Source of the DNA: Shigella phage fPSFA
Strand: one strand, 5' to 3'
DNA: 23,788 nt
Sequence record: OR670332
Positions 11,009-22,710 of this stretch are shown piece by piece; positions within the stretch are counted from its first letter, which is position 1; each line of letters starts with the position of its first letter. Made by a program: the position numbers and the translations under genes. Below the pieces are notes generated by a model. It did not search any database and was not told where the DNA came from. It worked only from the letters and a program-made list of their open reading frames with translations.

Positions 11009-12148
11009 ATGGTCACTCGCAAAATAACAGATGAACAGTTGCAGCAAGAGCTAAATGCGGGCCTCGGCCCCACAGAAATAGCTAAAAAGTACAATATGTC
11101 ACGCCGTAATGTTCAGCTTCGTTCTGCGCGCCTGGCGAAGAAAGGCGTCGGACACGGGCGCGACGTAAGCCACCTTGTGCCAGATGGGTATAAAATTAAA
11201 GGTACGTCGTCGCTGGTAGATGAATTCGGTAACACGAAACTTCAATGGGTGAAAACAGATACTGATGCTGAACGTCAGGTAGAATTAATGCGCGCGGTCA
11301 TCGACGGAATGAAGTCTGATATTACGCCGGTTTCTGCGGTCCCTCCTCCTAAAAAGCGGCTAAACGAAAAGTTGCTAAATCTTTACACTGTTTCTGACTT
11401 CCATTTAGGTATGCTGGCCTGGGCGGATGAGAGCGGTGATGACTGGGACATGAAGATTGCGGAAGACCTTTTCTCTAAATGGTTTGACGCCGCGTTTCAG
11501 AAAGCACCCGACGCTGGTGTTGGTGTTATTAATCTCTTAGGGGACTTTGCCCACTTCGATAGCCTTGACGCCGTTACACCCGAGTCACGCCATGTGTTGG
11601 ACGCGGATACGCGTTACCAGAAGTTGGTACGCTACATGATTCGTATGGTCCGCCGTGTTGTGGATATGGCGCTGGTTAAGCATCACACAGTCAAACTTTT
11701 AATCGTTCAAGGCAACCACGACCCTGTCGGTTCAGTATGGCTGTCCGAAATGTTCTGCGCATTGTATGGCAACGAACCTCGCGTATTTGTGGACACCTCC
11801 CCTGACGTATATAAGATGGTTCAGCATGGGAAAACTACGCTATTCATGCACCACGGACACCGTGCGAGATTCGACGCCATAGAGTCAGTAATGATTTCTA
11901 AATTCCGTAAGGCTTTCGGTGAAAGCACATACAGTTACGCCCATGTAGGTCATCTACATCATCAGAAACTAGTAGAGAGCCGTAATATGGTAGTCGAACA
12001 GCATCGCACCCTGGCGGCAAAAGATGCTTACGCATCGCGAGGGGGTTGGATGTCGGGCCGTAGTGCTAACGTGATAACCTATAGTGCCGAATATGGGGAG
12101 GTGGCGCGCCTCACAATATCACCAGAAATGATAGGGGGTATAAATTGA
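11009..12148 (+). CDS. HTH domain fused to calcineurin-like metallophosphoesterase
   Basis: N-terminal HTH-like segment (LGPTEIAKKYNMSRRNVQLRSARL). Phosphoesterase motifs VSDFHLG, LGDFAHFD, VQGNHD, MHHGH, HVGHLHH. AGGAAA RBS upstream. Confidence 0.7.
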   Translation: MVTRKITDEQLQQELNAGLGPTEIAKKYNMSRRNVQLRSARLAKKGVGHGRDVSHLVPDGYKIKGTSSLVDEFGNTKLQWVKTDTDAERQVELMRAVIDGMKSDITPVSAVPPPKKRLNEKLLNLYTVSDFHLGMLAWADESGDDWDMKIAEDLFSKWFDAAFQKAPDAGVGVINLLGDFAHFDSLDAVTPESRHVLDADTRYQKLVRYMIRMVRRVVDMALVKHHTVKLLIVQGNHDPVGSVWLSEMFCALYGNEPRVFVDTSPDVYKMVQHGKTTLFMHHGHRARFDAIESVMISKFRKAFGESTYSYAHVGHLHHQKLVESRNMVVEQHRTLAAKDAYASRGGWMSGRSANVITYSAEYGEVARLTISPEMIGGIN

Positions 12149-12618
12149 CATGGAATGATGTTTACGAATACGAAAACGGGAATCTTTACGCTAAGGACAG
12201 CGTAAACCCTAAGTACCAGAAAGGGCGTAAAGTAGGGTACGTTGATCAACGCGGATATGTAAGAACTAAACTAGGGCCAAAAATGACATTCGCCCACAGA
12301 ATTATATGGGAAATGTTTAACGGAGCTATACCGGAAGGCAAGGAGATTGACCATATAAACGGTGTGAAAAGCGATAACCATATAAAGAATCTTCGGCTAT
12401 GCGACCGGCGCATAAACTGCAAAAACGCGGCAAAGCGCAGGGATAACTCGTCTGGTGTTACTGGGGTCAGTAAAACATATAACGGTAAATGGGTAGTTCA
12501 AATTCAATATAACGGAAATAGAATAGCCAAGCGTTTCGACAACAAAGAAGACGCCATAAGATATGCCGAATGTTTTTACAAAGAAAAGAAAGACTTTACT
12601 GAGAGGCACGGAAAATGA
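12145..12618 (+). CDS. HNH homing endonuclease with AP2 DNA-binding domain
   Basis: HNH motif IDHINGVKSDNHIKNLRLCDRRINCKN, followed by an AP2-like segment SSGVTGVSKTYNGKWVVQIQYNGNRIAKRFDNKEDAIRYAE. Apparent TTG start overlapping the previous stop. Confidence 0.8.
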   Translation: MTWNDVYEYENGNLYAKDSVNPKYQKGRKVGYVDQRGYVRTKLGPKMTFAHRIIWEMFNGAIPEGKEIDHINGVKSDNHIKNLRLCDRRINCKNAAKRRDNSSGVTGVSKTYNGKWVVQIQYNGNRIAKRFDNKEDAIRYAECFYKEKKDFTERHGK

Positions 12619-12876: not shown

Positions 12877-14043
12877 GGCATACTTAATGCGCTGGATAAC
12901 AATCGATGACTGGAACTGGTTCCCGGTTGCCTGTCCCTCAAGAGAAAGGGTGATAGACTCAGGGCCGCCGATTTCCGGAGTTGCAGACGTCAGTGAAGCA
13001 CGTTTTAGTGTAAAGCTCATTGCGCCATCCGGGCCATCAAGGACCGAAGATACCTCCATTTCTGTTTCATCCAGGAATTTATTTAACAGCGTCAGGTCGT
13101 ACAGTTTACCAGCCAGTGAGAAAGTGTTAGCCGCGCGGCCGCGCTCAACAAATGCCACGCTGTTATTTCCCAACTCGAACTGTGCGGATGCGCCGTTGTC
13201 GTTAGTAATGGTGAACGTGTCGATAAGTTTAAGCGGCGCGGCTCCGTCATAAGCAGATACATCAACCGATGCAAACGGACGGGCGCTAAAATTGGTCGTG
13301 AAATCTGAACCACTCGGCGGTGCTTGTAAGATTTCCTGATTCAAGCCGATGAACGGGAATGAACCTGTCACCATAGCGTTAACCGCCTGTTCTATAGTGA
13401 ACCCGGTAAACTCAACGCCACGGGTTACGATATATGAATCCGGGTTTCCGCACTTACCTTTCAACCACGTAAGAATCGAATATGTCTTACACAAGTTACC
13501 GGTTTCCAGTTTATCTGCGATACGCAAATTGGCCTGGACGTCGGATTCGGCGGTAAGGGTATGCTGGATACCCGCACCGGTTACGACTGTAGCGGTTACT
13601 GCGGTAACGAGGAAAGCTTTATCGTTATTACCCGACAAACCATCGAATTGCACCAGGTCGCCTACTTCAACGCCGTCTGTCACAAAGCTACCGGTAGCGC
13701 GTGTAAAAGTTTTCGCTGCTGGGGCTACGGTGATACCAATGCCTGATAGAGTTGACCCGGCCACCCATGAACTAGTCATCGCACCGGCCAACAGCTCGTC
13801 CTGACTGGTCGCGCTCAGTTCAATAGCGTATTCACCTGTTACCTGACGGTTGCCGGTGCGGATGGACGATGTTTCACGGCTGCCGTCGAGCTCGTTGGAA
13901 ATGAGGGCGTCGCGCGTTACGGCCGGAATGCCACCAGTGTTGCGGAGCGGCTGCCATACCGGATTATCGGGCGTCACACCCGGCGTCGTCTCAAGAACGT
14001 AAAATTGCGCGGTCATCGCGCCCTTATATGGTTGTAACGCCAT
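12874..14043 (-). CDS. major tail (tube) protein
   Basis: 389-aa ORF immediately downstream of the head-tail joining and terminator genes and upstream of the tail chaperone/tape measure block. Call is by position. Confidence 0.55.
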   Translation of the reverse strand: MALQPYKGAMTAQFYVLETTPGVTPDNPVWQPLRNTGGIPAVTRDALISNELDGSRETSSIRTGNRQVTGEYAIELSATSQDELLAGAMTSSWVAGSTLSGIGITVAPAAKTFTRATGSFVTDGVEVGDLVQFDGLSGNNDKAFLVTAVTATVVTGAGIQHTLTAESDVQANLRIADKLETGNLCKTYSILTWLKGKCGNPDSYIVTRGVEFTGFTIEQAVNAMVTGSFPFIGLNQEILQAPPSGSDFTTNFSARPFASVDVSAYDGAAPLKLIDTFTITNDNGASAQFELGNNSVAFVERGRAANTFSLAGKLYDLTLLNKFLDETEMEVSSVLDGPDGAMSFTLKRASLTSATPEIGGPESITLSLEGQATGNQFQSSIVIQRIKYA

Positions 14044-14857: not shown

Positions 14858-15213
14858 TTTCTCACCTGAATAAAGTATGCCACAACATCATCGTTAACCA
14901 TCTTCTTCTCAATAGCAACTACAGACCATTGTTCACCGCTAAACCGCACCTTGTCATCCATCTTCGGCACCACACTGTAATCCGCTTTAACCATCATGTC
15001 GCCCGCCTGTATAGTAGTTCCGTTCACGAGCCCTGCATTAACGGGTACAGGAACCGCTTTAAGAGGGAGTACGACGTCAGGCCCCCACACGTACTCCCCT
15101 AAAACAGGGTCCCATGTTTTCTGGCCTTTGCGCACCAAAGTTACCGTGCTGCCGTATTTTGATAGTAGGCGAGTACCTACCCCTTGCATCCGTTTACTAA
15201 AAGCGGTGCTCAT
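14854..15213 (-). CDS. head-tail joining / head completion protein
   Basis: 119-aa ORF in the connector gene run, with overlapping start and stop codons on both sides. Confidence 0.45.
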   Translation of the reverse strand: MSTAFSKRMQGVGTRLLSKYGSTVTLVRKGQKTWDPVLGEYVWGPDVVLPLKAVPVPVNAGLVNGTTIQAGDMMVKADYSVVPKMDDKVRFSGEQWSVVAIEKKMVNDDVVAYFIQVRK

Positions 15214-17265: not shown

Positions 17266-18315
17266 TTAAGCACCGACGCCAGTTACCAGGAACGCAATCG
17301 GCACATGCTTACGGTCGACTACACGGTTCCAGTTAGCGGCGTTAGCAAGGTCTTGCCAGCTAGCGGAGCGGGCAATAGTCTCGGTGCCGTTGCCGGTGAT
17401 TACGGCGCTGGTGAAACTGTAACCGAACGGGTGTAGCAACCAGGTCTTACGAGTCCACAGCGTTTCTACACCACCGCCGTTAGCGCGAGATGCTTCACGC
17501 TCGTATTCCAACGGCATCACGGGGTTTCCTTCGCCGTAGCCGATTGCGCCCTGGCCAAAGATGATGGAGATGAACTTGCGCTGCGCACCCTGGCCTACTA
17601 CGGTCATGCTGTCGTCGACGATGACGCGATAGCCCTGGTAGGTGGCGAACATGGTGTCGTTCTCGGCATCACGGATGAAGTCGATAAGCTGGGCTTTACG
17701 GGCCTGTGCGTATACGAAGCTGTGCATTGCGATAGCGCCGAGAACCTCACCGCCGTTACCCATCAATGAGTCACCCATAGTCTGAGTAGCATCAATGAAA
17801 GCGCCGGCGTCGAAACCCAGGGTAGCGGAAACGTCCACCACCATGTCGTTCTGCTCGTGATACGCATCAGTAGCGGACACGTTGTCGTTGTACAGACCGA
17901 GGGCAGTTGCGATAAGACGACGCTGCGCCTGACGCTGCCAGAAGTTATCCAGACGAGACGCTACGGACTGCAACGGATTCTGGCTGGTCAATTCGACGGT
18001 AAGGTCCGCCTGACCAAAGCCTTCGTTCAGGTAGGCAACACGGGCCATCATTTCACCAGTCTGAATAGCGCGCGGAGTAGCGATATCCTGATACACATCG
18101 TTCGAATAGTTAGGTTCGATAGAGGTATCGATAGCTTTCCAGAACGGCAGGTTAGCAATGTTTGACGGACCGTTAGCAATCTCAGCCGCATACGGGGTAG
18201 GGGTGAGGATACCGGAGTCAAAAAACGCGGTTTTCTCTACCGGGTCTTCGGTCATATAAGACGCCAGTACAGGGATGTTGCCGGTTACGATATCGCCAAT
18301 AGTGGTAATTGCCAT
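17266..18315 (-). CDS. major capsid protein (HK97-fold type)
   Basis: 349 aa, directly downstream of the scaffold-like gene, with GAGGAAA 6 nt upstream of the ATG. Size, composition and position are typical of siphovirus major capsid proteins. Confidence 0.8.
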   Translation of the reverse strand: MAITTIGDIVTGNIPVLASYMTEDPVEKTAFFDSGILTPTPYAAEIANGPSNIANLPFWKAIDTSIEPNYSNDVYQDIATPRAIQTGEMMARVAYLNEGFGQADLTVELTSQNPLQSVASRLDNFWQRQAQRRLIATALGLYNDNVSATDAYHEQNDMVVDVSATLGFDAGAFIDATQTMGDSLMGNGGEVLGAIAMHSFVYAQARKAQLIDFIRDAENDTMFATYQGYRVIVDDSMTVVGQGAQRKFISIIFGQGAIGYGEGNPVMPLEYEREASRANGGGVETLWTRKTWLLHPFGYSFTSAVITGNGTETIARSASWQDLANAANWNRVVDRKHVPIAFLVTGVGA

Positions 18316-18318
18316 TAT

Positions 18319-19020
18319 TTATTTCCTCAGGGCTTTAAGTTGCCGTTCAAATTCGGCAGGGTTAGATTTATAGAGCGCTAAACGCTCGCTTTCACTCATG
18401 TCTTTAAACGCTGGTGCGGCCCCGCCGCCTTTATTCCCGGAAGCCCCGCCACCGGAAGCCGCATTTGCTTTAATCAAATGTGAAAAAGCTTTATGTTCGC
18501 GCAGGTATTTGCGGAACTGCTCAGGGTCGGTAGTAACAACATTGCCATCCGCACCCATGAATTTAGTCACTACGTCTTCACCGTCGAACTCGGTCTTGAC
18601 GAAAGGTGCCAGGATTTCTACCGCTTCTGGGGTGATAAAATCACCAGCGAAAGAACCTAAAACAGCCTTACGTTCGCTGCCAAGAATACGCGCAGCTAAA
18701 GATGCGTAACGCTCTTCTTTCTCTTTCAGTACAGGTTCATACTGACTACGAATCGTCTTTTCAAATTCGTCCATTTTACCGGCAGCCTTCAACGCTTCCT
18801 GGTGGGCACGCTGCCGTTCTTCTTCGGCTTCTTTAGCACGGCGTGCAGCTTCCTTTTTCTCGCTAAGTAGCGCTTCCTGGTTTGCCTTAAGCCCGGCAAC
18901 TTCTTTCTCAATCAGGGCCTGCACTTCTTCGGCGGTGTACATTTTTGGCACGTCACCTGCGCCCGGTTTATCTTCCACCCCGGCTTCTTCATGAAGCGGG
19001 TAACGTAAAAAACGATTCAT
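18319..19020 (-). CDS. capsid scaffolding protein
   Basis: Highly charged helical/coiled-coil sequence (EKKEAARRAKEAEEERQRAHQEALKAAGK...) immediately upstream of the capsid gene. ATG at 19020; the ORF track uses TTG at 19026. Confidence 0.65.
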   Translation of the reverse strand: MNRFLRYPLHEEAGVEDKPGAGDVPKMYTAEEVQALIEKEVAGLKANQEALLSEKKEAARRAKEAEEERQRAHQEALKAAGKMDEFEKTIRSQYEPVLKEKEERYASLAARILGSERKAVLGSFAGDFITPEAVEILAPFVKTEFDGEDVVTKFMGADGNVVTTDPEQFRKYLREHKAFSHLIKANAASGGGASGNKGGGAAPAFKDMSESERLALYKSNPAEFERQLKALRK

Positions 19021-19104
19021 AGTCAATATGTCCCCTGGACTTTAGGACACCGGGCCCCCCGGTGTTTCTGTAACAAGAATAAATTATTCCACTTACTAAG
19101 GCAA

Positions 19105-19386
19105 CTATTCCAGAATATTCCTTATGTATCCCTGTAACCGGAATACTTTCAGACGCAATTGCCGTGTGCACTCCGCGTTCTGCACATCGACGGCCAGGTC
19201 TTCATCGACATCACTACTCGGTAGCACCATTTTGCACGGTGGCTGCATCAACGTCGTATCCGGGGATGGAATTAGCATTCTCGGCGGCGCGTCGTTTGAT
19301 TGACACCCGTTCAGGAGGAAACTCACAGACAGTACGGCCAGGACGGGTAACGTATTTGATAACTTCACGGGTGATAGACTCCGCAT
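19105..19386 (-). CDS. o-spanin (Rz1-like outer-membrane lipoprotein)
   Basis: Signal peptide ending in the lipobox-like LLNGC, followed by a proline-rich segment (PPRMLIPSPDTTLMQPPC). It starts inside the Rz-like gene in the +1 frame and extends past its end. Confidence 0.6.
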   Translation of the reverse strand: MRSLSPVKLSNTLPVLAVLSVSFLLNGCQSNDAPPRMLIPSPDTTLMQPPCKMVLPSSDVDEDLAVDVQNAECTRQLRLKVFRLQGYIRNILE

Positions 19387-19600
19387 TTTCTTTACCTTCC
19401 GATTCGGCGGCGGCGGCTTGTGTATCGTCTTGCTGCTGCCGTTGTGTTTTCTTCGCTAGCTCGGCCTGTGCTTTCTGCTGTTGCTGCGAAACAAGATTCG
19501 CCCGGCCTTCCACCCACCCGCTTCTGTAGTTGTACTGGCCGTATAACCACAAAGAGAGGATACCGACTGCCGTGGCTACTGCGGTTACTTTCCAATTCAT
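19214..19600 (-). CDS. i-spanin (Rz-like inner-membrane protein)
   Basis: N-terminal transmembrane segment (VTAVATAVGILSLWLY) followed by a Gln/Ala-rich coiled coil. Overlapped by the lipoprotein ORF. Confidence 0.65.
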   Translation of the reverse strand: MNWKVTAVATAVGILSLWLYGQYNYRSGWVEGRANLVSQQQQKAQAELAKKTQRQQQDDTQAAAAESEGKENAESITREVIKYVTRPGRTVCEFPPERVSIKRRAAENANSIPGYDVDAATVQNGATE

Positions 19601-19894
19601 AGTATCCCCTTTCTTTATACGCTAAGCCCGACGTAAGTCGGGCGTTAAACTCGTATATCTGTAAACCTCATACGGCGAATCTTAGCTAAATACTGAAAGC
19701 AATATAGCTTGGCCCTTCCGAATGCGTTCGCGGTTACGCTAGGGCGTTGTGACGCCCGCTTCACGCGACCCGCACCGCGGTACGCTGAAAGCGTAGTTAG
19801 CGTAGCATTTAAAATAATAGAAATCTACTTTCTGAATAAAGTATTCCTTAATTTACATTGGCAAGGAATAATTGGAATAATTGAGGGCAAAATT

Positions 19895-19918
19895 AAGGCC
19901 CCTTGAAGGGGCCTTTCG
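19895..19918. terminator. intrinsic terminator after the Ig-like protein gene
   Basis: AAGGCCCC-TTGAA-GGGGCCTT with U-rich flanks on both strands. Confidence 0.55.
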
Positions 19919-20377
19919 TTACTTAGGTTCTGAGACCTTAGCTGCTTTGCTAACCACCGACACACCGTCGGCATCTACTGCCTTGACGAAATATTCTCCG
20001 GGGTCTTTAACGGTTAGTTCCCCTTCAACGTAAGGAACGTTGATTACCTCTTTACCATCTTTAAACCATTGCAAATCGTAGGGCGCTTTGCCACCTTTCA
20101 CGACAACGGTTAATTTTGCGGAACCATCCTTCAGTTGCACATCCGCCGGTTGCACATCGAAGTACACATCACCGGCCCCATCCAGATAAGGTACTTCGTA
20201 CAGGATGCCGTCCGAGATTGTAGCCAGTCCGGTCTTATCCGCAAACGGCATTTCGTCCACCGATTCACCGAGAACCGATTCATCTTTGATATACACGACA
20301 CCTTCACCGGCACCAGACACACGGGAGTACTGAACTACACGTCGTGAAGGCACATCTTTAACTTTGAAAAAGCCCAT
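19919..20377 (-). CDS. Ig-like domain protein (152 aa)
   Basis: C-terminal Ig-like segment YDLQWFKDGKEV...PGEYFVKAVDADG. AGAGGA 6 nt upstream of the ATG; directly follows the head morphogenesis gene. Confidence 0.6.
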   Translation of the reverse strand: MGFFKVKDVPSRRVVQYSRVSGAGEGVVYIKDESVLGESVDEMPFADKTGLATISDGILYEVPYLDGAGDVYFDVQPADVQLKDGSAKLTVVVKGGKAPYDLQWFKDGKEVINVPYVEGELTVKDPGEYFVKAVDADGVSVVSKAAKVSEPK

Positions 20378-20379
20378 CT

Positions 20380-22239
20380 CTATTCCTCTTTCAGATAATC
20401 GGCAACACGCTTATCGAGTTCCGCCATCTCTTTAAGAGTTAACGGACGCCCGAATCCGTCTACCGATATTACACGAAATTCTTCCGGGGTTATCCCACTA
20501 TTACGAAAAATCTTACCCCGAACAGGGCCGAGGGCTTCGTCCTGAAACCACGCCGGTTGCTGCTTGAGGAATTCGTAGTAGGTCGTGTCGGCGCTTACCT
20601 GCTGACCTCCATCTGCACCCCTGGCCGCCCGTTTCGCGCCCTTATCAAGGAAGTCAAATTCGGAACTAATTACCGGAGCGGTTGTTGAGCGACAGTTATG
20701 TGCTATAATTCCATTTGCAAGATACCAGTTCTGTTCATTTTCGAGGTTATAAACATGCCCGCAAAAATCAGCTTCACTAAAGACCAAATCGACAACATCA
20801 TCAAGCTCTACACCGACGGCGTCGGACCAGTTGAAATCGGAAAGATTATCGGCGTTTCGTGTAGCCCAGTCATACGCGTTCTCAGAGAGAACGGCGTTAC
20901 TATTCGCGGAGGCAGCGACGCTATGTTTATCAGAATGGCTAAAGCTACCCCCGAGGAGCGCCTCGCGCTCTCCGCCGCAGCGCATGAAGCCGCCCGAGGG
21001 AGAAAGGCCGACCATGCCGAACTGCTTCGCAGGGCCAAAGCCAGGGAGGGGGGCATCAACGCTGGCAGCCACTGGGAGTTCCTTGTCAACGATTTGCTTA
21101 TTCAGTCTGGACTTGACTTTATCCCAGGAAAGGCTGTCGACAAGTACAATCTCGACTTCGCCGTCGGTTCCGTCGCCGTGGAAGTCTTCGGGGGAGGTTG
21201 GGCTTGTACTGACCGCCGCCGGATTGGCCGCTACATTAGCCGCACTAAACAAATCGGAGAACTTGGCTACAACGTTGTGTTCCTTATGCTTGAGAGAGAG
21301 CGTAGCGTCCTTAGCGCACACGAGCTTGTCACCTACATTGAGAAGGCCAGAAGCAACCCAACCACTGGTAGTCAATACTTGGTGATTTGGGGTGATAGAC
21401 AAGGTGCGACCGGACTTTGTAGAGACATAGACTATAGTGCCTTTGTACGCCCTTTTAAAAATGTTAGAAACAGGGCTACCGGTAGATACTACAGTGTCCC
21501 CAAGTAAACAATTAGGATGGGCCGGCGGCAGCGGCCCTTTTCCTATTTCGTACTGCATAGAATCGCGCGACCGGCAAACAGCCGAAGTACGGGAATCAAG
21601 GGTAGATACCCACTCATATTTCGTGATGATATCGTCGTTCTGAGCGTAAACCTGTTGCCGTGCTTCGTTGGATACGTGCGCCAGCGCTGTCCGGATAACG
21701 GTTGCAGCGTTACGCTCGGAGATATCGGCCAGACCACCGGGCCCAACAACGTTCTTAACTATCTGCCGCGTGGTCATACCCTGTACGAACCCAGACTTAA
21801 CCCCCATCACCAGGCGATTCACCTCGGTTTGCCGCCAGCCATTCATTAGCGAAACAAAATCAACCGGTTTTTCGCTTAGTTCAAGTGGCGCGAAAGTCGC
21901 AGCGGCCCACACCTGCTCCGCAGCCGGTGTTACAAAGTTAGCATTAACGTTGGTCGACAATGTTTTTACATTCCAGTTAACCTCATAGTCGGAAAGCTCA
22001 CGGGCGTCGGCCAGTAGCTTCTCATACCACCCGGACGTAATTCCGTTCAGTGCTTGCTCAAGTTCCCGCAGCATGATGGTGAGTCTCGCTGCCGTTCTGC
22101 TGTCATCGCCAAACAGCAGCACCTGTCGCTTAACCTCATCACGCATTTGCGAGATAAATGGTGCCAGGTCTTTTACTTCGCTACTGGCGTTACGTTGCAG
22201 CAATATCTGGTGGCTGATAATCGATTCTAAAAGACTCAT
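20380..22239 (-). CDS. head morphogenesis protein (SPP1 gp7 / Mu F-like), intein-containing precursor
   Basis: N-extein ends ...TLDSRTSAVCRSRDSMQYEIGKGPLPPAHPN and the C-extein begins CRSTT, which restores the family's HPNC-type motif after excision of 272 aa. AGGAGG RBS upstream. Confidence 0.75.
   Translation of the reverse strand: MSLLESIISHQILLQRNASSEVKDLAPFISQMRDEVKRQVLLFGDDSRTAARLTIMLRELEQALNGITSGWYEKLLADARELSDYEVNWNVKTLSTNVNANFVTPAAEQVWAAATFAPLELSEKPVDFVSLMNGWRQTEVNRLVMGVKSGFVQGMTTRQIVKNVVGPGGLADISERNAATVIRTALAHVSNEARQQVYAQNDDIITKYEWVSTLDSRTSAVCRSRDSMQYEIGKGPLPPAHPNCLLGDTVVSTGSPVSNIFKRAYKGTIVYVSTKSGRTLSITPNHQVLTTSGWVASGLLNVGDKLVCAKDATLSLKHKEHNVVAKFSDLFSAANVAANPAAVSTSPTSPEDFHGDGTDGEVEIVLVDSLSWDKVKSRLNKQIVDKELPVAASVDAPLPGFGPAKQFGMVGLSPSGGFMRCGGEREALLGGSFSHSDKHSVAASANSNAVLSENAYDWATRNADNLSDFNWSDAVGVELDDVVDLVFSEADFCGHVYNLENEQNWYLANGIIAHNCRSTTAPVISSEFDFLDKGAKRAARGADGGQQVSADTTYYEFLKQQPAWFQDEALGPVRGKIFRNSGITPEEFRVISVDGFGRPLTLKEMAELDKRVADYLKEE
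20682..20709 (+). promoter_or_regulatory. putative extended -10 promoter for the antisense intein-nested gene
   Basis: TGcTATAAT at 20701-20709, with TTGTTG at 20682-20687 and a 16-nt spacer. Confidence 0.45.
20695..21510 (-). mobile_element. intein (Hint domain) inserted in the head morphogenesis protein
   Basis: Block A CLLGDTVV at the N-terminus, block B SITPNHQVLT, and C-terminal blocks VYNLENEQNWYLANGIIAHN followed by a +1 Cys. In frame with the host gene. Confidence 0.75.
20755..21507 (+). CDS. HTH + DUF559/Vsr-like (PD-(D/E)xK fold) endonuclease-like protein, encoded antisense within the intein
   Basis: ATG at 20755 with GAGG 8 nt upstream. N-terminal HTH (DQIDNIIKLYTDGVGPVEIGKIIGVSCSPVIRVLRENGV). 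DUF559-like core YNLDFAVGSVAVEVFGGGW...TDRRRIGRY...LGYNVVFL. Translation verified by hand. Confidence 0.65.
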   Translation: MPAKISFTKDQIDNIIKLYTDGVGPVEIGKIIGVSCSPVIRVLRENGVTIRGGSDAMFIRMAKATPEERLALSAAAHEAARGRKADHAELLRRAKAREGGINAGSHWEFLVNDLLIQSGLDFIPGKAVDKYNLDFAVGSVAVEVFGGGWACTDRRRIGRYISRTKQIGELGYNVVFLMLERERSVLSAHELVTYIEKARSNPTTGSQYLVIWGDRQGATGLCRDIDYSAFVRPFKNVRNRATGRYYSVPK

Positions 22240-22341
22240 ATGTCCTCCTGTAAATGCCCTCAGTTTACACGATTAAAATATTTGTTGCTTAACCAAATAT
22301 AATAGGGTACTATTATTCTTAGTTGAACAGGAGAAAGTTAA

Positions 22342-22710
22342 ATGGGTATGTATACGAAGTTATGGTTTGATGCTGACTTAAAACATAACGTAGATGAAAT
22401 TAACCTGCGCGCATTGGAGTACCTATTTGTCGGTGGTGACGTCCCTGATGTATTACCGTGCCACCCATTTTTCACACTAGAAAGATGGTCGTACATGTTT
22501 TATTCCCCTGCGTACTCGGGAGATGCCGTCACGGTTAAACTTGGCGATTACTACAACCATGTATCGGCGCATATAGAGGTTAAAAATTACTGCGGCGAGA
22601 TAGAGAGTTTCCTTGATTGGGTACGACCACTCTTGGACGTGGAGAAGGGGACTTGCATAGGGTGGAAATGGTATGAAGGAGACGATAACCCAATCCTGAT
22701 ATACGCGTAA
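22342..22710 (+). CDS. hypothetical protein (122 aa, aromatic-rich), moron between portal and head morphogenesis genes
   Basis: ORF occupies a gap with no minus-strand gene. AGGAGA RBS 7 nt upstream and a terminator directly downstream. Confidence 0.55.
   Translation: MGMYTKLWFDADLKHNVDEINLRALEYLFVGGDVPDVLPCHPFFTLERWSYMFYSPAYSGDAVTVKLGDYYNHVSAHIEVKNYCGEIESFLDWVRPLLDVEKGTCIGWKWYEGDDNPILIYA

Follow-up and report, generated by a model that had tools for sequence, protein, structure and literature searches.

A very probable two-component spanin of the Jersey family within the head gene module of Shigella phage fPSFA

Our results indicate, with high confidence, that two overlapping ORFs in the head gene module of Shigella phage fPSFA encode a two-component spanin from a family already in the literature, the "Jersey" family, whose i-spanin and o-spanin genes overlap. 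The family, this type of member, and the arrangement have all been described before, and nothing about the pair as a spanin is substantively new; what we add is a corrected probable start for the o-spanin, which is missed or truncated in many Jerseyvirus records, and a description of conserved elements upstream. Further, the case illustrates that a reader without tools, as for the initial annotation of this DNA, can recognize a spanin pair from the sequence alone. The DNA studied, hereafter the window, is a stretch of 23,788 nt (record OR670332), and its sequence places it in Jerseyvirus: the 2.1 kb around the pair are 99.7% identical to the Jerseyvirus Salmonella phage SGPC and have DNA-level matches in 480 phage records, chiefly from Jerseyvirus and Kagunavirus.

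All of the genes around the pair lie on the minus strand. Read along that strand, a MuF-like head morphogenesis gene (20380-22239) and a Hoc-like Ig protein gene (19919-20377) are followed by the i-spanin gene (Rz-like, 128 aa, 19214-19600) and the o-spanin gene (Rz1-like lipoprotein, 87 aa, 19105-19368), and then by the scaffold (18319-19020) and major capsid (17266-18315) genes, such that the pair sits between the Ig-like and scaffold genes, just as the initial annotation had it. The four flanking genes were identified by profile matches. The i-spanin call draws on the ORF, its PHROG match, hydropathy, an AF2 model, alignment, and codon-position diversity; the o-spanin call draws on the ORF, PHROG matches, start-codon comparison, and the lipobox; and coordinates and diversity delimit a dual-coding overlap of 155 nt (19214-19368), formed by the 3' end of the first gene and the 5' end of the second. 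For comparison, we used 20 related loci, comprising two full or near-full genomes, Kagunavirus Bas74, Klebsiella phage 37P2, the Salmonella phage SenTO17, the Dhillonvirus TheodorHerzl, and 14 IMG/VR contigs; the complete genome of the relative f18SE is 41.9 kb. Homologues of the i-spanin are present in 663 phage records, with tblastn identities of 84-100% among Jersey-like phages and 35-50% in Klebsiella and Dhillonvirus members.

The i-spanin ORF starts with an ATG, with AAAGGGGA just upstream, and its protein begins MNWKVTAVATAVGILSLWLYG. Residues 1-23 form the sole hydrophobic stretch, with a transmembrane (TM) helix at approximately residues 5-21 (19538-19588) ahead of a periplasmic domain that is predicted to be helical, and the protein matches phrog_2536 ("Rz-like spanin") at an E of 5.7e-57, bearing out the earlier description of an Rz-like gene with a transmembrane segment. 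Single-sequence AF2 modeled one long helix (residues 3-83), with block-mean pLDDT values of 79-95 to about residue 60 and below 50 in the C-terminal 50 residues; published work describes the Jersey-family i-spanin as two helices with a beta-containing linker (PMC6139136). By analogy, an N-in/C-out topology would be expected. The single cysteine, Cys92, is periplasmic and is present in seven of eight aligned sequences, being missing from Klebsiella phage 37P2, and an ITxEVxKY motif, R89, and F94 are invariant in alignments down to 40% identity. Conservation is strongest in the C-terminal half of each protein, i-spanin and o-spanin alike, in alignments that go down to 39-50% identity.

The second gene has the signature of an outer membrane (OM) lipoprotein. 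Its longest ORF (19105-19386, 93 aa) lies in the +1 frame relative to the i-spanin and encodes a basic N-region, a hydrophobic core, and the lipobox LNGC (19303-19314), followed by Gln (context MKLSNTLPVLAVLSVSFLLNG, then CQ, hence a non-Asp +2 residue). The predicted acylated Cys is residue 22 counted from a GTG start, and the mature part, of 66 aa, contains seven Pro and two more Cys. All three cysteines (the lipobox Cys, Cys45, and Cys67 in GTG numbering) are invariant in eight sequences down to 39% identity. The protein has no C-terminal hydrophobic stretch, the transmembrane domain (TMD) being on the separate i-spanin. Its lipoprotein signal was called with an ad hoc, rule-based scan of six frames, as opposed to SignalP or LipoP; run on the window and on the complete f18SE genome, the scan recovered this one ORF and no other, against a chance level averaging 0.09 such ORFs per shuffled window. 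Hence, the phage has exactly one spanin candidate, and chance does not account for the o-spanin ORF. At all 20 related loci, the +1 frame is open and includes a lipobox. The out-of-frame, Rz1-like lipoprotein gene of the initial annotation is, in this respect, confirmed, as is its reading that this gene is overlapped rather than fully embedded: the ORF extends 109 nt past the i-spanin stop.

Two in-frame starts are available to the fPSFA o-spanin, ATG 19386 and GTG 19368, situated 18 nt apart, and they give overlaps with the i-spanin of 173 and 155 nt, respectively. Across 18 Jersey- and Kaguna-type sequences, the position of the ATG reads ACG, ATT, or AAT in 11, and in two of these an in-frame TGA also separates it from the downstream start; all 18 have GTG or ATG at 19368, with GGAG(G) ahead. 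This pattern of conservation makes GTG 19368 the probable start, rather than ATG 19386, giving an 87-aa precursor (MKLSNTLPVLAVLSVSFLLNGC...).

Nucleotide diversity by codon position, computed from 17 distinct sequences, shows the pattern expected of two real genes with a dual-coding segment, with both frames under purifying selection. Specifically, diversity at positions 1, 2, and 3 was 0.144, 0.097, and 0.247 in the part coding for the i-spanin only, and 0.033, 0.039, and 0.198 in the o-spanin frame of the 109 nt past the i-spanin stop, and it was flattened in the overlap (0.151, 0.087, and 0.154 in the i-spanin frame). These values bear on the idea that only the TMD protein is real and that the Rz1-like ORF is an accidentally open frame, an idea that could draw on the many public records that annotate the i-spanin only, or that reduce the second ORF to a truncated fragment of 47 aa (phrog_5672 itself models such a fragment). 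Given the third-position excess in the o-spanin's own frame where nothing else is encoded, a lipobox Cys that withstands divergence to 39% identity, and the low number of such ORFs expected anywhere in a window, we regard this idea as effectively refuted.

The family assignment is likewise well grounded. The o-spanin matches phrog_5672 (E of 1.5e-30) and phrog_1267 (E of 4.8e-19), both of which, as for the i-spanin, are "Rz-like spanin" families, and annotated relatives name the i-spanin gene as a spanin. Searches of both proteins against Pfam returned no family at E<=0.01 save one sub-threshold, spurious match, and NCBIfam returned none; thus, no relation to lambda Rz/Rz1 can be detected at the sequence level, and the pair is not a sequence member of the lambda-type Rz (Pfam Phage_lysis) and Rz1 families, though the architecture is alike. 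Kongari et al. (2018) placed Jersey, SETP3, SE2, L13, K1G, HK578, EP23, and others, 27 phages in all, in a "Jersey" family, which is larger than any other family of two-component spanins with overlapped genes, and listed a spanin overlap of 155 bp for phage Jersey (PMC6139136). Counted from the conserved GTG, the fPSFA overlap equals this figure. Further, a Jerseyvirus paper annotated the same two PHROGs as two spanins, standing apart from the holins and endolysin in the gene order (PMC9409062).

Based on the working model of spanin action from lambda and T4 (summarized in PMC6139136), the i-spanin would be anchored in the inner membrane via its N-terminal helix and would extend a largely helical domain into the periplasm, and the o-spanin would cross the inner membrane, acquire its lipid at the lipobox Cys, and be delivered to the OM inner leaflet, in keeping with Gln rather than Asp at +2. 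Binding across the periplasm would take place between the conserved C-terminal halves of the two proteins, and the conserved periplasmic cysteines would probably form intermolecular disulfides. The holin and endolysin, encoded ~8 kb upstream and outside the window, would first remove the peptidoglycan mesh, after which the spanin complexes would fuse or disrupt both membranes and thereby complete lysis. Topology, complex formation, and membrane fusion are all expected here by analogy to lambda and T4, and a spanin function for the pair is likewise argued from architecture and analogy.

A different function can be imagined for such a pair, namely as an envelope-protein module with a non-lysis role, e.g., superinfection exclusion or receptor masking of the kind exerted by T5 Llp or phi80/N15 Cor, acting with a membrane partner. 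An OM-lipoprotein-type product in a siphophage and a location away from the holin and endolysin would suit such a module, and our literature search found no experimental lysis data, or experimental test of any kind, for a Jersey-family spanin. We nevertheless consider this role very unlikely. Genes of the Llp/Cor type are single lipoprotein genes, unlike the pairing of a TMD protein with a +1-frame lipoprotein seen here, and both fPSFA proteins fall into spanin PHROGs and into the curated Jersey spanin family. Moreover, the phage would then lack a spanin, as the complete related genome offers no other candidate, and a T4 Imm-like exclusion protein has been separately reported in these phages.

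A two-component spanin thus remains our reading of the pair, and its position relative to the other lysis genes deserves consideration. In line with the initial annotation, which saw no holin or endolysin in the window, none of the other ORFs among the 15 scanned matched a lysis-category PHROG, and the remaining window ORFs correspond to tail genes in annotated relatives. Looked for elsewhere, as had been advised, both genes were found 7.5-8.3 kb upstream, on the same strand, in related genomes. Specifically, f18SE has its endolysin and two holin genes at 36373-37457, and its i-spanin gene (28461-28847) follows 7.5 kb downstream on that strand, after several small genes and the terminase, portal, and MuF genes. 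In SGPC, the endolysin (22079-22567) and the spanin (13356-13742) are 8.3 kb apart on the same strand, a distance that would put the endolysin ~4 kb beyond the right end of the fPSFA window. Similarly, the Dhillonvirus TheodorHerzl carries holin-holin-endolysin just upstream of the terminase genes and its spanins in the head module.

The gene order portal-MuF-(Hoc)-i-spanin-o-spanin-scaffold-capsid was found at all 20 related loci, including those of Kagunavirus, Klebsiella phages, and Dhillonvirus. On this comparative evidence, the head-module position of the spanins is ancestral and fixed in two phage groups, the Guernseyvirinae and Dhillonvirus. The suggestion that the arrangement is unusual therefore holds against the lambda paradigm only, and fails for these two groups: every locus in our sample is syntenic, 663 phage records carry an i-spanin homologue, and the arrangement is already in print. 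For Escherichia coli phage Schulenberg (Guernseyvirinae), a separation of the spanins from the holin and endolysin has been published (PMC6763661); Schulenberg is a different genus-level relative, and its announcement is silent about the head-module context and about regulatory sequence upstream. More broadly, two phage groups that consistently keep their spanins among the head genes show that lysis genes need not cluster, and searches for spanins that are limited to the neighborhood of the endolysin would produce false "spanin-less" calls.

The strictness of this placement between MuF/Hoc and scaffold across genera, together with a Dhillonvirus i-spanin whose start overlaps the stop of MuF, might be read as a sign that the pair acts in head assembly, e.g., in tethering procapsids to the membrane, instead of or besides lysis. 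We give this even less credence than an exclusion role. The products are predicted to be periplasmic and OM located, which is incompatible with the assembly of capsids in the cytoplasm, and the spanins evolve faster than, and as a mosaic relative to, the flanking scaffold and capsid proteins (84-96% versus 93-100% aa identity). Virion proteomics of Jerseyvirus T102 named no spanin component in the main text, which is not decisive, and the endolysin was also detected, such that the preparation was not clean.

Part of that mosaicism is visible within the i-spanin gene itself. Three Jersey-like IMG/VR contigs (L018-L020) join a Kaguna-type leader and a diverged N-terminal/TMD segment of the i-spanin to a Jersey-type remainder, which implies a recombination breakpoint within the i-spanin gene. 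In L018, the diverged segment is Kaguna-like, with Kagunavirus Bas74 (L003) as the reference.

Expression of the spanins together with head genes is plausible, since all late genes share one strand. Upstream of the i-spanin lies a gap of 318 nt (19601-19918, minus strand) that is non-coding and highly conserved, and that occurs as two diverged leader types, a Jersey type and a Kaguna type. Directly past the stop of the Hoc-like gene, the minus strand presents a terminator-like hairpin (AAGGCCCC-TTCA-GGGGCCTT, then AATTTTG; 19888-19915), in place of which L018 has a different but canonical hairpin with a T-run. Next come two TTATTCC direct repeats (19865-19881), a GGAATACTTTATTC palindrome (19834-19847), and a promoter-like element, TAGATT-17-TGCTACGCT (19799-19827), with TGC-TACGCT as an extended -10. 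In this element, TGnTAnGCT and the spacing are invariant in 17 loci spanning the two diverged leader types, and the -35 reads TAGATT in fPSFA and TTGACT in several relatives. Transcription from it would give an untranslated leader of ~190 nt, in which a few covarying pairs were seen, the effective number of independent lineages in this covariation analysis being ~3.

Close to the gene, a GC-rich hairpin on the minus strand (19626-19643), found by folding, lies 13 nt ahead of the Shine-Dalgarno sequence of the i-spanin (19605-19612). It has three compensatory stem variants across relatives, with a weak U-tract in fPSFA and a T-rich tail in Kaguna-type relatives, and might act as an attenuator or stabilize the RNA. 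Folding also revealed an 8-bp GC hairpin without a U-tract (19047-19065, minus strand), conserved in 17 loci, in the gap from the o-spanin stop to the scaffold start, where it is accompanied by a second copy of the palindrome, GGAATAATTTATTC (19077-19090, minus strand). A consensus sigma-70/terminator scan returned no minus-strand promoter and, owing to its strict T-run rule, missed the hairpins; Rfam gave nothing credible for the whole window at the gathering threshold or for 19000-19960 at E<=10.

On either side of the spanin pair are palindromes of the GGAATAnnTTATTC type and half-site repeats, TTATTCC/GGAATA (19834-19847, 19865-19881, 19077-19090, and 19106-19121). With up to one mismatch, the GGAATAnnTTATTC 14-mer has four sites in the window versus 0.22 expected, and f18SE, over its full genome, has these same four sites and no others, which argues against a general late-promoter motif. 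Two of the four, one-mismatch matches at 14868 and 16327, are probably coincidental; they lie at coding junctions, one of them in an RBS/start context. The repeats are possibly a candidate regulator binding site or a recombination scar.

The layout as a whole is suggestive of spanins that stand at the head of a transcription unit continuing into the scaffold and capsid genes. A stronger version, in which they form a separate late unit under the control of the terminator, the GGAATAnnTTATTC-type candidate protein-binding palindromes, the extended -10, the ~190-nt leader, and the hairpin abutting the RBS, strikes us as a speculative proposal with the odds against it. If true, such a unit would time or throttle the synthesis of the spanins (and of scaffold and capsid) independently of the holin and endolysin, in loose analogy to the attenuated pR'-6S-tR' leader of lambda.

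Several side observations concern the annotation and content of the surrounding DNA. In the S4lw record, the i-spanin is labelled "transcriptional regulator" and a 39-aa "fibritin" ORF is also annotated at the locus, and the Hoc-like gene is labelled "tail protein" in public records. A "tRNA-Ser" in SGP007 and SGP009 (equivalent to ~19870-19948, plus strand), which overlaps the end of the Hoc-like gene and the terminator hairpin, was judged a false call; ARAGORN detected no tRNAs anywhere in the window. A plus-strand ORF of 122 aa (22342-22710), located between the MuF and portal genes, matches phrog_4334, the function of which is not known, over positions 1-133 of the 190-position profile. 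Its f18SE counterpart has 216 aa and the RefSeq name "amidase", and the fPSFA ORF may be a shortened copy of a possible extra cell-wall hydrolase. Finally, two plus-strand ORFs (12145-12618 and 11009-12148) lie in a plus-strand island inside the minus-strand structural module; f18SE and SGPC both have a 231-nt hypothetical gene in their place, marking a variable, mobile-element-prone spot within the island.

A further observation, and probably one of more interest than the spanin pair itself, comes from the MuF-like gene, which holds a 272-aa intein (20695-21510, minus strand; Pfam Intein_splicing). A plus-strand ORF of 269 aa (20698-21507) runs codon-aligned antisense to the entire intein. 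Compared with distant phages, the central 152 codons are much more strongly conserved when translated in antisense than in sense: for Gordonia phage Fosterous, 48% identity (E of 2e-26) versus 27% (E of 3e-9); for Klebsiella RCIP0015, E of 2e-18 versus 0.004; and for the Aggregatibacter phage Aaphi23, E of 8e-17 versus 2e-5. In all three, the antisense homologue also lies antisense within an annotated host gene; in Fosterous and Aaphi23 this gene is MuF-like (minor capsid or head), and in RCIP0015 it is a hypothetical gene without a name. Among Jersey-type variants, substitutions in the central part are most frequent at the third position of antisense codons (67 versus 29 and 15; 48 versus 15 and 8), with aa identities of 0.80-0.88 in antisense versus 0.50-0.65 in sense. 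The sense frame is free of stops despite its lower conservation, and at the Hint-domain ends it is slightly better conserved (0.69-0.87 versus 0.65-0.80 in antisense). The antisense product has an HTH-like N-terminus, no match in Pfam, NCBIfam, or PDB sequences, and a pLDDT of 33 in single-sequence AF2. From these patterns, it looks like a DNA-binding, endonuclease-like gene lying within an intein that is kept open in the sense frame, possibly a homing-endonuclease-like gene carried on the intein's complementary strand. Our literature search found no description of an antisense gene within an intein.

Set against known systems, the fPSFA pair is closest to the Jersey family, with which it shares the sequence family (84-100% identity to Jerseyvirus members), TMD, lipobox, Cys layout, and genomic position, and from which it departs only in that fPSFA and some close relatives carry an extra in-frame ATG 18 nt upstream of the GTG. 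It resembles lambda Rz/Rz1 in combining a type II inner-membrane protein with a +1-frame OM lipoprotein, in its periplasmic cysteines, and in its proline-containing o-spanin; however, lambda Rz1 is fully embedded and sits in the S-R-Rz/Rz1 lysis cassette, whereas the fPSFA o-spanin is overlapped and lies outside of any such cassette. With P2 LysB/LysC it shares an overlapped, rather than embedded, architecture, although that pair lies inside a lysis cassette and belongs to a separate sequence family in the published grouping (PMC6139136). It fits neither the canonical contiguous holin-endolysin-spanin cassette nor the unimolecular spanins of the T1 gp11 type, in which one protein bears an N-terminal lipobox and a C-terminal TMD. 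Lastly, T4 PseT.3/PseT.2 provides a precedent for spanin genes unlinked to the holin (t) and endolysin (e) (PMC6139136, Fig. 8 legend), but the T4 spanin genes are separated, without overlap, and its holin and endolysin are also unlinked to each other, whereas in fPSFA-type phages the holin and endolysin remain together and the spanins alone stand apart.
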